Source of the DNA: Clostridia bacterium
GTDB lineage: Bacteria; Bacillota; Clostridia; Christensenellales; UBA1242
Reading direction: 5' to 3'
Assembly: GCA_017623705.1 (NCBI GenBank)
Contig: JAGAOQ010000018.1
Span: 949-64,948 of the forward strand
Length of the DNA: 64,000 bases
Shown here: one piece after another, positions 1-29,004 of the stretch
Numbering within the stretch: the first letter of the stretch is position 1
Layout: every line of letters starts with the position of its first letter
Program-made: the position numbers and the translations under genes
The notes under the pieces: generated by a model
What the model saw: only the letters and a program-made list of their open reading frames with translations
Told to the model about the DNA's origin: nothing
Database searches by the model: none

Positions 1-685
1 ACGAAGTAATGAACAAGCGTTTATCTTTGTATTGAGCAAACAATTCATCTAAACGTTCACCAACGGTTGTTTCACTCATGGTAAAACCTTCACGTTCAAT
101 GTTCGTACTTTCGCATAACATCAAAGAAACACCCTTACGACCAATTTCCCCGATGCGAGCCAAATCAATCGGTTGGTTATCCACTGGCGTTAAGTCAATC
201 TTCAAGTCCCCGCTGTGGAAAACAGTTCCCAACGGTGTCGTAATTGCCACTGCAAACGCCCCAGGGATTGAGTGGTTGACATGGACAAATTCAACCGAGA
301 ATTCACCGATTTTAACCACCGCACGGGGACGTACCGCCACCGCCTTAACTTTCAAACCCGAGTGTTCACGCAACTTGTGTTCGATTAAGCCCAACGTCAT
401 ACGACTTGCATAAACCGGAGCCGGAACTTCTTTCAAAGCAAACGGCAAGCCACCAATGTGGTCTTCGTGTCCGTGTGTAATGATGTACCCTTTAACTTTG
501 TGCTTGTTACGGATTAAGTAGGTAATGTCTTGAACGACTAAATCAATCCCGGGCATTTTGTTATTGTCGGGAAAACCTAACCCTGCATCAACCACGATGA
601 TGTCATCACCAAATTCAAAAACGGTCATGTTTTTACCGATTTCACCCAGTCCCCCCAAGAAACTAATCCTTAAATTTTTACTCAT
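1..685 (-). CDS. rnj: Ribonuclease J, N-terminal part (C-terminus lies beyond the window start)
   Basis: Absent from the ORF track because it runs off the edge. My reverse translation from ATG 685-683 gives MSKNLRISFLGGLGEIGKNMTVFEFGDDIIVVDAGLGFPD, followed by the metallo-beta-lactamase motif GYIITHGHEDHIGG. An AAGGAG SD lies at 697-692. Confidence 0.85.
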   Translation of the reverse strand, partial: MSKNLRISFLGGLGEIGKNMTVFEFGDDIIVVDAGLGFPDNNKMPGIDLVVQDITYLIRNKHKVKGYIITHGHEDHIGGLPFALKEVPAPVYASRMTLGLIEHKLREHSGLKVKAVAVRPRAVVKIGEFSVEFVHVNHSIPGAFAVAITTPLGTVFHSGDLKIDLTPVDNQPIDLARIGEIGRKGVSLMLCESTNIEREGFTMSETTVGERLDELFAQYKDKRLFITS

Positions 686-702
686 TTTTCTCTCCTTACT
701 AT

Positions 703-2718
703 CTAATTTAGATTCACAATTTTATTGTAAATAGCACTTTTGCTCAATTCCGTCGTACGTTCATTGTGGATTGTTAAACGGTTACGCACGACTTCATAAA
801 TTCCCAGTTGTTGAAATACCGCAAAACAGAAGACAAACTGGAAGATGTTTTTCTTTGGTAACACGATTTTGCTAAATAATTTTAAGGGTGATTGACAAAA
901 ATTATTTTGATTTACCAAATTTAGCGTTGCTTTATAATAATCAATAAAAACCGACCTGTCAACACTTAACCCGCTAATAATGGCTTGCAAGCTTTGGTCA
1001 GGGGTAACCGCCAACTCATCATGTAAGTAACGTTGCAGTACCAAAGCTTTTTCATCATCGTTAATCGCAAACGGAATCACACACTTAACCACCGCTTGCG
1101 GAGCTGTGCCGTCATTTTGTTGCAATTCAAATATCACACTCTTGTTACAAGGCGACGCCAAAATTTCGTTAAAGACTGCCCCGCCGAAGAAAATAAACTT
1201 CAACTGCCCGTTGTCAAATTTAGTATGAATCGGGTGGCTTGGCAAACTCACAGCATGCGTTTGGCGTAAGACGGTCATCAAAACTGGTGCTGGATTACCA
1301 CAGCCCGTCGGTTCAAGCATGGCAACTTCTTGGAAAAATTGTTGGTTCAATTCTTCGGCACTAATTTCAAAATCATAGTACTTACAATTTTCCGTCGTTT
1401 GCGTTGCCAAAGTATCCGTAACAATTTGTTGGAACAACGTACGGAACTGCGTAAAGTTCGCCACTGGCAAAGACATACCCGCCGCCATGGCATGCCCACC
1501 AAAAGTTGATAAGTATTCCGCCGCTTTGGTAATACATTCCACTAAATGTACACCCACAATACTACGTCCGCTCCCTTTGTAGACTTCACCTTTACCACCT
1601 AACACAATACAAGGTCGCCCGTACTTTTCCGCCAGACGTACCGCAACAATACCTAACACACCGCTTTCCCATTCGGGTTTAGCCACCACAATCGCACTGT
1701 CATTTTGTAAGTTTTCCGCTTCAATCATTTTCACGCACTCGTTAAAAATTACCGTACACAATTCTTGACGTTTCGTGTTCAAGTACAATAAGTTCTTAAC
1801 AATTCGTTCTAAGCGAATTTCGTCTTGTTCCAAAATCACATCTAACCCACGTTTCGCATTTCCCATGCGTCCACTAGCGTTAATTTTCGGGCCTAAACGG
1901 AAACTAATATCACCACTCTTAATCTTGCCACGAATATTGCAAGCCCGTGCCAAAGCGGTAATCCCTGGCACAGTTCCAGCATTTAACATCTGCAAACCAT
2001 GATGCACGATGACACGATTTTCATCGGTTAAAGACACAATGTCTGCGACCGTGGCAATCGCACAAATGTCAAAGTACTGTTTCGCAACCGCTAAACCTTC
2101 CATTGCTTGCACCAGTTTCAAAGCCACACCTGCTCCGCACAAATCGTCAAACGGATAAGCTTGGTCCTTAAATTTCGGGTCAACACAAATACAGTTCGGT
2201 GTTTGTTCGGGAATCGCATGGTGGTCAGTAACAATACAGTCAATCCCTAACGATTGAGCATACTCAATTTCTGCGGGGCAAGAAATCCCGCAGTCCACCG
2301 TAATCAACAAGTCAGGGTGGAATTTTTCATTCAAGCGACCAACTAAGTCAATGTTCAAACCATAGCCATCGGCATCACGTTCGGGCAAAAAGTACGAAGT
2401 ACGAACCCGTTGTGTTAGTAAGTACTTATACAAAATGGCAGTGGCACAAATACCATCAGCATCATAATCGCCGATAATTAACACTCTTTGTTTACGGTCA
2501 ATAGCATTGTGCAACCTTTCCACCGCCTCCGGCATACCTTTCAATAAGAACGGGTCGTGTAGTTGTTCAGGGTCGAAGTTAAAAAACTTTTCAGCTTTTT
2601 CCCGAGTGTCAATACCTCTTTCAATTAACAAACGGATAAACTTTTCACTATACCCTAGTTGGTTGAACTCCGCCAGTTGCCGAGGGGTTACTTCCCCGCA
2701 CCTGACTTTATATTCCAT
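703..2718 (-). CDS. recJ: Single-stranded-DNA-specific exonuclease RecJ (DHH/DHHA1 family)
   Basis: 671-aa ORF with DHH-family motifs IIGDYDADGICATA, ITVDCGIS and VTDHHAIP, and a GGHAMAAG DHHA1 motif. Confidence 0.9.
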   Translation of the reverse strand: MEYKVRCGEVTPRQLAEFNQLGYSEKFIRLLIERGIDTREKAEKFFNFDPEQLHDPFLLKGMPEAVERLHNAIDRKQRVLIIGDYDADGICATAILYKYLLTQRVRTSYFLPERDADGYGLNIDLVGRLNEKFHPDLLITVDCGISCPAEIEYAQSLGIDCIVTDHHAIPEQTPNCICVDPKFKDQAYPFDDLCGAGVALKLVQAMEGLAVAKQYFDICAIATVADIVSLTDENRVIVHHGLQMLNAGTVPGITALARACNIRGKIKSGDISFRLGPKINASGRMGNAKRGLDVILEQDEIRLERIVKNLLYLNTKRQELCTVIFNECVKMIEAENLQNDSAIVVAKPEWESGVLGIVAVRLAEKYGRPCIVLGGKGEVYKGSGRSIVGVHLVECITKAAEYLSTFGGHAMAAGMSLPVANFTQFRTLFQQIVTDTLATQTTENCKYYDFEISAEELNQQFFQEVAMLEPTGCGNPAPVLMTVLRQTHAVSLPSHPIHTKFDNGQLKFIFFGGAVFNEILASPCNKSVIFELQQNDGTAPQAVVKCVIPFAINDDEKALVLQRYLHDELAVTPDQSLQAIISGLSVDRSVFIDYYKATLNLVNQNNFCQSPLKLFSKIVLPKKNIFQFVFCFAVFQQLGIYEVVRNRLTIHNERTTELSKSAIYNKIVNLN

Positions 2719-2780
2719 GTCAAAAACAAATTACCATAAATTTAGTTGTTTTGCAACCAAAAACCAATTATGCTACTAAT

Positions 2781-3623
2781 ATGGAAAAAATTAAAATTAC
2801 CGCAGACAGTACCTGCGACTTACCAGCAGAAATTTTAGCCGAATTTGACATTGCCACCGTACCACTCCACATTCATTTAGGCGACAAAGAATTACACGAC
2901 CACGAACACATTGCGGAAGAAATTTATCAATATTTCCGTGCGACCAAAAAGACACCCAAAACTTCGGCAGTTAGTGTTCCCGAATACACCGCATTTTTCC
3001 AAGCCAATTTACCTGCTGACGGCAGTATTATCCACTTCAACATTTCGGGCGAACTATCATGTACCCACACGAACGCCGTCAATGCCGCCAAAGAATTGAA
3101 AAACGTCTACGTTATTGACAGTCGCTCTTTGGCAACAGGAACAGCTGTTTTGATGTTACGTGCGATTAAATACCGTAACGAAGGCATGACCGCTCCCGAA
3201 ATCGTGGCACGCATTAACCAAGAAGTAAATAAAGTCCAATGCAGTTTCATTGTCGATGACTTAACGTTCTTACACCGTGGCGGACGTTGCAGTGGTACGA
3301 CCAAATTTTTTGCCAGCGTACTCCGCATTAAACCCGAATTAGTTTTGAAAGACGGCAAGATTGAAACCGGTAAAAAATTCCGTGGCAATTTCAATTTTTG
3401 CGTCAAACAATACGTTGACAACATTTTTAACACTAATCCACAACCCGACTTGTCCGTACTTTTCATTACGCACACCAAAATGAGTAACCCACAAATTATC
3501 GAAGATATTAAACAACAAGCATTGGCACGTTATCCTTTTGCCCGTGTGATTGAAACTATCGCCAGCGGAACAGTAACCGCACACTGTGGCGAAAATACAG
3601 TCGGCGTGATTTACGGTTTATAA
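2781..3623 (+). CDS. DegV family fatty-acid-binding protein
   Basis: MEKIKITADSTCDLP is a typical DegV N-terminus. I chose ATG 2781 rather than the ORF-track start at 2751. Confidence 0.85.
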   Translation: MEKIKITADSTCDLPAEILAEFDIATVPLHIHLGDKELHDHEHIAEEIYQYFRATKKTPKTSAVSVPEYTAFFQANLPADGSIIHFNISGELSCTHTNAVNAAKELKNVYVIDSRSLATGTAVLMLRAIKYRNEGMTAPEIVARINQEVNKVQCSFIVDDLTFLHRGGRCSGTTKFFASVLRIKPELVLKDGKIETGKKFRGNFNFCVKQYVDNIFNTNPQPDLSVLFITHTKMSNPQIIEDIKQQALARYPFARVIETIASGTVTAHCGENTVGVIYGL

Positions 3624-26950: not shown

Positions 26951-28870
26951 TTACGCATTTTTACTGCGGTTGAGAATGTATTGATCTGAACCATCGGACA
27001 TATAAATATTTTCGCCGTCCGTCCAAATATGTTCAGCATAAAAACCAGAATCCGAAGTAACCCACTTCTTATCCAACCAAGTATTTGTTGTTTGATCCAA
27101 AACATAATGCTCATTATAATTTGAATAGTAAGTATTTGTACCATCGGTCCAAATATATCGACTATCAAAGCTGGTTAAACCAGTCCATGTGATTTTTTCC
27201 CAAGTGTTATCTGCACCTAAAACATATTGTGTACTATAATCTGAATAATAAGTATTTTCGCCGTCTGTCCAAATATATTGACCATATACTAGAACAAAAT
27301 CACCCTGCCATACGACATCTTCCCATTCCATGGTTGCTTTGTTTAATTTATATTGCGTATAATCACCAGAAGAATAATAGGTATCTTGTCCGTCCGTCCA
27401 AATTTCACTCGCAGTAATAGTTTTATTCCATTCAACCGCTTCCCATGTTTTGGTTGCTTTGTTCAATTTATATGAACCAGAATATTCAAGATAAGTTTCA
27501 ACACCATCAGTCCAAATATATTGACCAGAAAATTCTATTGCATTACCACTTAATCCCTGCCAAGTAATTGGTTCCCATGTACGAGTATTTGACGCTAAAA
27601 CAAAATGCTTACCCGACTCAGAATAGTATGTATTTATACCATCGGTCCAAATATTATTTTCTGCTCTAAAATTTCCTTTTAGCCCTTTCAGCACCGCAGG
27701 AACCCAGTTTTTGATAGTTTTATCAAAAGTAAAATGCATATTATTATAGTAAAAATATTGTTTTCCATTATGCGTCCAGATATTAACACCCCATGCAGGT
27801 ATCCGCTTTTGATTGTATTCAAATTGAATACTTGACCATTTTTTATTCGCTTTGTCTAAAATATAATTATCATTATTACTACAAAAATAAATATCATTGC
27901 CGTCCGTCCAAGTATACCTACCACTAAAACTGGTTAAACCCGTCCACGTTACCGTTTCCCATGTGTTATTTTCAACCAAAACATATTGTGTGCTACTAGT
28001 CGAATAATAAGTATCTTCGCCGTCCGTCCAAATATATTGACCATTAAAGCTGGTTAAACCTGTCCATGTGATTTTTTCCCAAGTTTCATCTGCACCTAAG
28101 ACATATTGTGTACTATAATTTGAATAATAAGTATTTTCGCCATCCGTCCAAATATATTGACCATCAAAGCTGGTTAAACCATTCCATGCAATTTTTTCCC
28201 AAGTGTTATCTGCACCTAAAACGTATTGATTACTGTTATATGAATAATAAATTTTTTCGCCGTCCGTCCAAACATATTGACCATCAAAGCTGGTCAAACC
28301 ATTCCACGTAATTTTTTCCCAAGTTTCATCTGCACCTAAGACATATTGTGTACTATAATTTGAATAATAAGTATTTTCGCCGTCCGTCCAAACATACATA
28401 CCATCAAGATTTTCACACAAACCACCCCATGAAGCTACGGTAAACCAGTCTTTTTCCACCATGTTGGCCACAAATTTGGTATTTTCTTTAATCGTGGTAC
28501 TGTCTGTCATTTTTTCGCCAACACCGTCAATTTGCCAGCCGTCGAAAGCATGTGTGTCGGTGTCAGGTGCGGTTGGCAAATAAATACTGTTACCTTTTTT
28601 GGTAACGTCGATTTTCCAAATTTTACCGTCGACTTCGTAAGACACAACCGCCGACGCAGGGTCCATGTTAATCGTGTTTTGTAAATCACTTACCGCATCG
28701 TTCAATTTTTCGTTTTCTTGCGTTAAGTCTTGGTTGTCTTGTGTTAAGTCTTGATTGTCGTGGTCTAAGGTTACGTTCGACAAACCGAAACTAACCGCAA
28801 GCAATGTCGAGATTGACGAAATACAAATCGCCAAGAACATTAAAATGATACGGAAAATTTTATTATTCAT
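26951..28870 (-). CDS. Surface protein: N-terminal signal/anchor, Listeria-Bacteroides-type repeat, then 12 propeller-like repeats (IWTDG..YYS)
   Basis: The start is placed at MNNKIFRIILMFLAICISS (28870; AAGGAG SD). The segment AFDGWQIDG..TKFVA matches an InlB-B/Flg_new-like repeat. Twelve WTDG/WTHNG units follow, spaced about 40-46 aa apart. Confidence 0.8.
   Translation of the reverse strand: MNNKIFRIILMFLAICISSISTLLAVSFGLSNVTLDHDNQDLTQDNQDLTQENEKLNDAVSDLQNTINMDPASAVVSYEVDGKIWKIDVTKKGNSIYLPTAPDTDTHAFDGWQIDGVGEKMTDSTTIKENTKFVANMVEKDWFTVASWGGLCENLDGMYVWTDGENTYYSNYSTQYVLGADETWEKITWNGLTSFDGQYVWTDGEKIYYSYNSNQYVLGADNTWEKIAWNGLTSFDGQYIWTDGENTYYSNYSTQYVLGADETWEKITWTGLTSFNGQYIWTDGEDTYYSTSSTQYVLVENNTWETVTWTGLTSFSGRYTWTDGNDIYFCSNNDNYILDKANKKWSSIQFEYNQKRIPAWGVNIWTHNGKQYFYYNNMHFTFDKTIKNWVPAVLKGLKGNFRAENNIWTDGINTYYSESGKHFVLASNTRTWEPITWQGLSGNAIEFSGQYIWTDGVETYLEYSGSYKLNKATKTWEAVEWNKTITASEIWTDGQDTYYSSGDYTQYKLNKATMEWEDVVWQGDFVLVYGQYIWTDGENTYYSDYSTQYVLGADNTWEKITWTGLTSFDSRYIWTDGTNTYYSNYNEHYVLDQTTNTWLDKKWVTSDSGFYAEHIWTDGENIYMSDGSDQYILNRSKNA
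27901..28400 (-). repeat. Tandem 120-nt (40-aa) coding repeats, partly identical
   Basis: Units begin at 27901, 28021, 28141 and 28261, with a partial unit at 28381. About 60 nt at 28081-28140 is repeated exactly at 28321-28380. A related copy lies at about 27140-27280. Confidence 0.8.
28718..28759 (-). repeat. Two tandem 21-nt units encoding DNQDLTQ-DNQDLTQ
   Basis: ttgcgttaagtcttggttgtc (28718-28738) and ttgtgttaagtcttgattgtc (28739-28759), with 2 mismatches. Confidence 0.75.
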
Positions 28871-28929
28871 TTGTTTTTCTCCTTTTTCGCATAATTCCAC
28901 AGTTAGTATGTGGAACTACTACTAAACGT

Positions 28930-28956
28930 ATAATAGAAAAAAAAAAAAAAAATCAA
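28930..28956 (-). promoter_or_regulatory. Candidate promoter whose spacer is a 16-nt homopolymer (T16 on the coding strand)
   Basis: On the minus strand: TTGATT (28956-28951), then the remaining T run plus C (15-nt spacer), then TATTAT (28935-28930). The A16 run on the plus strand spans 28937-28952. Confidence 0.45.
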
Positions 28957-28958
28957 CT

Positions 28959-29004
28959 AAAAAAAAGTCCGCCGACGATTTTGACGTCATTTGGCGGACT
29001 TTTG
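28959..29004 (-). terminator. Rho-independent terminator after the NfeD-SPFH operon
   Basis: On the minus strand: stem AGTCCGCC (29000-28993) paired with GGCGGACT (28973-28966), followed by T8 (28966-28959). Confidence 0.75.

Follow-up and report, generated by a model that had tools for sequence, protein, structure and literature searches.

The stretch of DNA analysed here, referred to as the window, comprises 64,000 nt from the draft genome of an uncultured small-genome gut Clostridia bacterium (assembly of 635 kb in 21 contigs, 74% complete). On its minus strand, the window carries the gene of P0001, a protein of 639 aa. The translated product features an N-terminal transmembrane (TM) helix and a long helical stalk (coiled coil), which extends to about residue 68, as well as a small beta domain (residues 73-144). 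Some 12 repeats of about 47 aa, which share the motif WTDG..YYS..QYVL..TWE, were modelled as tandem beta-propellers. Searches in Pfam, NCBIfam and PDB returned no sequence match, and information on the family came from the predicted fold. The AlphaFold (AF2) model, obtained with eight family members as input, has a pLDDT of 79 and a pTM of 0.68, and its top Foldseek matches are the double-propeller ectodomains of BT4663/BT4673 and PorZ. Thus P0001 is predicted, with support from the model, to be a membrane-anchored extracellular surface protein. The predicted TM anchor, stalk and double beta-propeller ectodomain agree with the original prediction, which had called the product a surface protein, and with the surface-exposed product expected of a contingency locus.

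The P0001 family is multicopy, with at least six copies or fragments in the source genome, mostly at contig ends, and is limited to part of the genus. Genes of another, unrecognised family of about 310 aa ('MKL...') flank the surface-protein genes in triplets: one triplet is found in the window downstream of P0001 (23985-26929), the other upstream of a related gene with a T17 tract on contig C6 of the same genome (~490-3600). In other assemblies, P0001 is bracketed by both 'MKL...' triplets.

Upstream of P0001 lies an operon assigned as NfeD/SPFH from Band_7 and NfeD matches. It is followed by a hairpin with a dG of -20.9 kcal/mol and a z-score of -5.27, and none of 200 shuffled sequences folded as well. 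The strength of the fold, together with the U8 stretch behind it, makes the hairpin a good terminator of this operon. From the terminator on, the minus strand reads GGCGGAC-T8-AG-TTGA-T16-C-TATTAT-ACGTTTAG; the immediate surroundings of the tract are AGTTGA-T16-CTATTATAC, in the wider context ...GGCGGACTTTTTTTTAG TTGA T16 C TATTAT ACGTTTAG. The features of the region are listed in Table 1.

Table 1. Predicted and observed features between the upstream operon and the end of the P0001 gene, in the direction of transcription; positions are those of the window.
Feature	Position	Strand	Description
Intrinsic terminator of the upstream NfeD/SPFH operon	28959..29003	-	stem AAAAGUCCGCC...GGCGGACUUUU, inner GACG/CGUC helix, then U8
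Candidate -35 box TTGATT	28951..28956	-	4/6 matches to TTGACA; its final TT opens the tract
T16 homopolymer (A16 on the plus strand)	28937..28952	-	proposed slippage-prone spacer element
Candidate -10 box TATTAT	28930..28935	-	5/6 matches, A2 and T6 present; 15 nt after TTGATT
Overlapping weaker -10 alternative TATACG	28927-28932	-	spacer would be 18 nt
Predicted 5' leader, ~55 nt	28871..28927	-	hairpin and Shine-Dalgarno AAGGAG; putative start
Leader hairpin	28889-28922	-	core TTCCACA/TGTGGAA, loop ACATACTAA region; dG -12.8 kcal/mol, z -3.0
Shine-Dalgarno AAGGAG	28879-28884	-	8 nt upstream of the ATG at 28870
Gene of P0001, 639 aa	26951..28870	-	translation; ATG at 28870

The candidate hexamers TTGATT and TATTAT flank the tract. 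They were chosen by their match to the consensus and by their conservation in 13 copies of this promoter region, hereafter called cassettes; the transcription start placed behind them is putative. The spacer of 15 nt is composed of 14 T and the C. No other pair resembling -35 and -10 boxes was found in the 90-nt gap between the terminator and the start codon. The original prediction had proposed that the T16 tract lies between such boxes with a spacer of 15 nt, directly behind a terminator and in the sole place available for a promoter. Its sequence and coordinates (28930-28956) are exact, the terminator is real, and the hexamer pair is the single one in the gap. A consensus promoter scan made no call at the T16 locus, since its spacer range was 16-18 nt; the same scan calls TTGATT-17-TATTAT on a T18 allele of a sister species. 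The leader is conserved in paralogues and sister species, and its hairpin may serve mRNA stability or act as a further regulatory element; comparison of the region with known RNA elements gave only sub-threshold Rfam matches. Across three species, almost every cassette copy retains the loop region ACATACTAA, also when its stem is different.

Long A/T runs are rare in the source genome. The whole 635 kb contain 2897 runs of 5 nt, 96 of 8 nt, 7 of 9 nt and one each of 10 and 11 nt, and none of 12-14 nt. Three runs of at least 12 nt are present (15, 16 and 17 nt), all of them directly preceded by TTGA on the coding strand. Extrapolation with even a gentle 0.3-fold decay per base gives an expectation of fewer than 0.05 runs of 15 nt or longer. 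The T16 tract is far above chance and is an outlier in its genome. It is an uninterrupted repeat over-represented in relation to genome composition, as in contingency loci, the next longest runs being of 11 and 10 nt. Two of the three long tracts precede paralogues of one gene and share the same -10 box, leader and signal-anchor codons.

The third, TTGA-T15, lies outside the window on contig C21 (58174-58188), after 23S-5S rRNA genes. It stands upstream of a 180-aa ORF without a membrane anchor, and the same terminator hairpin flanks this ORF on both sides. No convincing -10 box was found at a workable distance from the T15 tract, which fits a promoter model poorly and counts against the interpretation of such tracts as switches.

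The preferred spacing of promoter boxes was estimated from near-consensus pairs in the source genome (TTGACA/TATAAT, at least 11 of 12 matches), counted for each spacer length. There are 42 pairs at 17 nt, 11 at 16, 15 at 18 and 6 at 15; other spacers yield 0-7 pairs, except for 15 at a spacer of 22. The sharp peak at 17 suggests that the housekeeping sigma factor is strict about this length. With TATTAT as the -10 box, the spacer equals the tract length minus one, so that T18 and an 18-nt interrupted copy of the tract both give exactly 17 nt. T16 gives a 15-nt spacer, a length at which promoter-like pairs are no commoner than at most off-optimum spacers. As its spacer is 15 nt against an optimum of 17, the T16 allele of the window is probably low or OFF, judging by sequence, and the interrupted paralogue behind smpB would be locked ON. 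The original prediction had held that two more T would bring the spacer to the optimal 17 nt, and this fits the peak in the genome, two T18 alleles in a sister species and the paralogue fixed at a length of 18 nt.

The interpretation that we favour, with a probability of about 75%, is that the T16 tract forms the spacer of a sigma-A-type promoter, TTGATT-N15-TATTAT, and acts as a simple-sequence contingency switch. Replication slippage would add or delete T residues in the tract, and each gain or loss would shift the -35 box relative to the -10 box, both in distance and in rotational phase. Since its -10 box is not of the TG-extended type, the promoter should be reliant on the -35 box. About T18, with a 17-nt spacer, would be fully active, T17 and T19 would be intermediate, and T16 or fewer, as well as T20 or more, would be weak or silent. 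The -35 box, Tn tract, -10 box, conserved hairpin leader, Shine-Dalgarno sequence and signal-anchor codons would together make up a portable cassette heading each member of the family of stalked double-propeller surface proteins, and each paralogue would be switchable on its own, as in Mycoplasma hyorhinis vlp. We infer the identity of the hexamers, the transcription start, the ON lengths, the reversibility and the rate of switching.

The same switch could also work in another register, with TATACG (TATAAG in the sister species) as the -10 box. The spacer would then be the tract length plus two, T15 would be optimal, and T16, with 18 nt, would be near-ON. In favour of this register, TATAAG, found in the sister genomes G005 and G012, differs from TATAAT at one of the 6 positions, and alleles of T14 to T16 are common. 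The final T of the sigma-70 -10 box is near-invariant; TATACG and TATAAG do not have it, whereas TATTAT has both A2 and T6. In addition, the intact paralogue with the invariant 18-nt interrupted tract would acquire a 20-nt spacer and be permanently off, and both T18 alleles would be off too. Owing to the missing final T and the permanently silent locked copy, this register is ranked lower than TATTAT and is considered unlikely.

Tract lengths were compared across public assemblies, which were found by exact copies of neighbouring housekeeping proteins; the tracts were counted and their flanks compared. At the SPFH locus of the window, T16 (the window), T17 and T16 were observed, and one further contig ends after T16. 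There are no differences in 400 nt upstream, and for the assembly with T17 the full 2972 nt upstream were compared and are identical to the window. At the MKL311 locus, which has T17 in the source genome, the other assemblies carry T20, T22 and T20, with no differences in 450 nt among the three. The rpsO locus (T7 in the source genome) has T8, T8, T14, T14, T16 and at least T22, with 2-7 mismatches per 300 nt. The control, the interrupted tract T8GTGT7 behind smpB, is invariant in three assemblies with identical flanks in all three. Repeat number thus varies while the flanks are conserved, as in contingency loci; the flanks of the sister loci have 98-99% identity or no differences at all, with a divergence of at most 2.5% at rpsO. 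The comparison of tract length among strains that the original prediction had put forward as a check accordingly gave variation, both here and, to a larger extent, at the sister loci (T20/T22/T20 and T7 to at least T22).

These lengths bear on the explanation that the tract is a static, AT-rich, rigid spacer of fixed length and that the differences between assemblies are short-read homopolymer or assembly errors. All the data are metagenome assemblies. At the window locus only T16 and T17 occur, and a difference of one T is within the short-read consensus error for a homopolymer of 16-17 nt. Several contigs (L078, L093 and L120) have one of their ends within the tract or beside it, where assemblers struggle; the breaks are accounted for by paralogy, as the boundary of the repeat lies at the tract. 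For the same reason, contigs ending inside the tract were rejected as evidence of length heterogeneity. Errors of this kind would not produce the differences of 4-15 nt at the other loci (T7/T8/T14/T16/T22; T11 vs T18; T17 vs T20-22), which exceed consensus error by far, and k141 contigs are the source of at least some of the data. The interrupted tract of equal total length is constant in three assemblies. Hypervariable pure tracts beside a constant interrupted copy make the pattern that of slippage, because assembly noise would hit both kinds. Since the run varies from 7 to 22 T between sister genes and near-identical strains, an on/off or dimmer switch driven by slippage is very probable, and a static spacer with assembly noise is quite unlikely. 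The larger length differences, which come from paralogous and orthologous loci, could represent slow evolutionary drift and not rapid switching.

Cassettes were searched for in the genus by the -10/leader motif alone, and the search is therefore unbiased with respect to the tract. Thirteen copies were found, all in three species: the source genome (G000) and the MEGAHIT k141 assemblies G005 (JAZNFA01) and G012 (JAZSAE01). Their tracts are T7, T8, T11, T14, T15 (after TTG), T16, T16, T17, T18 and T18, two interrupted ones (T8GTGT7 and T8GGT6) and a degenerate one; both T18 alleles belong to one sister species. TAYTAT is conserved in all 13 copies, and the similarity between them starts at about TTGA. 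Between the copies G012:C70 (T18) and G005:C7 (T11), no difference was seen in the compared flanks of 70 nt upstream and 110 nt downstream. The ORF is truncated in all three cassettes with a collapsed or degenerate tract, G000:C8 (T7, 108 aa), G012:C53 (T8, 32 aa) and G012:C27 (degenerate, 58 aa), and is open in the other ten (p ~0.0035, Fisher's exact test, hand calculation). Long tracts are therefore kept where the gene is alive, and such a coincidence of tract collapse and truncation is not expected of assembly noise.

The T7 copy, linked to rpsO on contig C8 of the source genome (251-630), lacks the C behind the tract, and its short ORF results from a stop codon together with 2 nt inserted into an A-run; it is a decaying member of the family. 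A scan of JGI metagenomes for the cassette pattern gave no matches, and the collection seems to be without this lineage. A looser pattern applied to GTDB contigs recovered the G005 and G012 cassettes, as well as matches in Gemella, Bacteroidales and others, which were dismissed as chance since inspection showed no long T run.

Related tracts occur beyond this cassette. TTGA followed by at least 11 T was found in 7 of 19 genomes of the genus and in 3 of 146 other genomes of the family that were sampled; a control with the reversed pattern gave no matches. Among the 26 tracts of at least 12 T in the genus, 20 start directly at a hexamer containing TTG and end 1-3 nt before a hexamer resembling the -10 box, and the remainder are terminator tails or artefacts. 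The -10 contexts fall into five groups: CTATTATA; CAGTAAACT; CTGTAATAT; CACAATAAT, which follows a perfect TTGACA; and (T)ATAAT. In the CTGTAATAT context, an ATG stands at +18 or +20, and these transcripts are probably leaderless mRNAs. The genes behind nearly all of the 20 tracts encode TM-anchored proteins or lipoproteins, which belong to several unrelated families. Spacers in the single-copy classes are mostly 16-17 nt (range 16-20), with -10 hexamers picked by eye.

Some of these loci deserve mention on their own account. At L032 (G005:C2), L037 (G004:C3), L029 (G001:C11) and L035 (G017:C2), in other species of the genus, a distance of only 16-20 nt separates the tract of a TTGA-T14-16 promoter from the start codon, as in CTGTAATAT...ATG; the genes, which encode lipoproteins or anchored proteins, have no Shine-Dalgarno sequence, and this suggests leaderless mRNAs. 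A switch of this kind may also exist outside the genus: in another one of the family, two tandem paralogues for small membrane proteins (L054/L055, G020:C47 353-977) are preceded by TGTTGA-T13 and TGTTGA-T11, respectively, and the flanks are near-identical. At L042 (G004:C41 ~6725), about 20 C are followed by T15 and then by an N block, and the sequence looks like an assembly or scaffolding artefact.

The arrangement of the tracts also bears on the suggestion that the T-tract is not a spacer at all, but a curved or rigid UP-like or protein-binding element, or an extra terminator tail of the upstream operon. The tract does follow the terminator directly, and the Helicobacter pylori sabA gene offers a precedent of a poly-T beside the promoter that tunes expression (PMC2715451, PMC11162790). 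However, the terminator has a U8 of its own, TTGA is interposed between it and the tract, and other cassette copies follow quite different upstream sequences without an adjoining hairpin. Downstream of the tract there is no alternative pair of -35 and -10 boxes. Finally, in five different -10 contexts the tract starts at TTG(A) and ends 1-3 nt before a -10-like hexamer. A role outside the spacer is thus very improbable.

The genes behind the tracts differ between assemblies. In two other assemblies, an exact or near-exact P0001 is located behind the MKL311 locus (T20 or T22), and the gene driven by the SPFH locus (T17) is a paralogue of 629 aa with about 60% identity to P0001, followed by an MMPL transporter gene. 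In the source genome, P0001 is at the SPFH locus and the 629-aa gene is on contig C14 (36051-37718), cut at codon 74. The loci compared for this site swap are window positions 26951-28956 and L076/L119, L095, L083 and L120. Tract length follows the upstream locus, and any crossover would therefore lie in the shared leader and 5' coding sequence of about 110 nt. The swap of P0001 between sites reflects either real recombination or a chimeric contig.

The absence of mismatch repair, as in mycoplasmas, was considered and rejected, as mutS and mutL are present throughout the genus: MutS matches were found in all 19 genomes, 18 of them above the curated cut-off, and MutL likewise in all 19. The elevated slippage of repair-deficient mycoplasmas is consequently not to be assumed here, which counts against the switch. 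Tentatively, and with more doubt than confidence, this clade of genome-reduced (~0.7-1.1 Mb) gut and rumen Clostridia may possess a mycoplasma-like, two-tier surface variation despite intact mismatch repair. The first tier may be a genus-wide 'phasome' of at least five promoter designs, in which a poly-T of 13-19 nt is the whole spacer before genes of unrelated anchored-protein and lipoprotein families. In the second, the cassette (Tn, -10 box, leader and signal anchor) may be the recombination substrate that moves propeller-ectodomain genes between sites.

Switches based on slippage in promoter spacers are textbook knowledge in Neisseria, Haemophilus, Bordetella and mycoplasmas; a full-text literature search found no report of them in gut Clostridia. 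The porA (poly-G) and opc (poly-C) tracts of Neisseria meningitidis and the fim poly-C of Bordetella pertussis are promoter-spacer tracts. As proposed here, a homopolymer between the -35 and -10 boxes sets the spacer in these systems and gives ON, intermediate and OFF levels of a surface protein. Their tracts are of G/C, 9-14 nt long and part of the spacer, whereas the tracts described here are of T, 14-22 nt long, and make up about the entire spacer together with part of the -35 box.

A close parallel in layout is found in M. hyorhinis, where each vlp promoter contains a homopolymeric A tract (Citti & Wise 1995, summarised in PMC10502178 and also cited in PMC4198240). Both systems have an A/T homopolymer of about 17-20 nt in the promoter of each gene of a surface family and belong to a small-genome, host-associated bacterium. 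Both have one tract per gene, which would allow combinatorial expression, and a conserved promoter-leader-signal cassette in front of repetitive, variable ectodomains. The proteins have no sequence homology: P0001 is predicted to be a TM-anchored double beta-propeller, whereas Vlp is a lipoprotein with short charged repeats. The homologous prolipoprotein signal, lipobox cysteine and Vlp-type repeats that define the Vlp family are absent from P0001, which has a signal anchor with a coiled coil and 47-aa propeller blades, and no family match. Also unlike M. hyorhinis, the present host is a member of the class Clostridia, uses the standard genetic code and has both mutS and mutL intact. For vlp, switching was demonstrated experimentally, whereas here it is deduced. 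By analogy, the locus is Vlp-like in mechanism and not a Vlp homologue.

TA dinucleotide repeats occupy the promoter spacer of Vmm in Mycoplasma mycoides and of Vmc in M. capricolum (Persson 2002, via PMC10502178). On the description given there, the gene of a variable surface protein has its -35/-10 spacer filled by a simple-sequence repeat, as here; unlike here, each step is 2 nt, as the repeats are dinucleotides, and the proteins are unrelated. In H. pylori sabA, the variable promoter T-tract adjoins the -35 box and lies outside the spacer (PMC2715451, PMC11162790). Both are promoter poly-T tracts of variable length that tune the expression of a surface protein, an adhesin in sabA and, by our reading, P0001 here. 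The sabA tract works via DNA topology and the positioning of a regulator, and sabA also has a CT repeat in its coding region.

An uncultured, genome-reduced commensal lineage thus appears to have converged on the design of Mycoplasma vlp, in which a long A/T tract constitutes the entire spacer and is copied before each gene of a variable surface family. If this is true, the lifestyle of these tiny-genome gut bacteria would include stochastic variation of the surface; they possibly live as epibionts or face strong pressure from phages or immunity. TTG(A)-T>=12-(-10) would then be a simple signature by which variable surface genes could be found in metagenomes, and homopolymer length at such sites would have to be read as biology, not as assembly noise.
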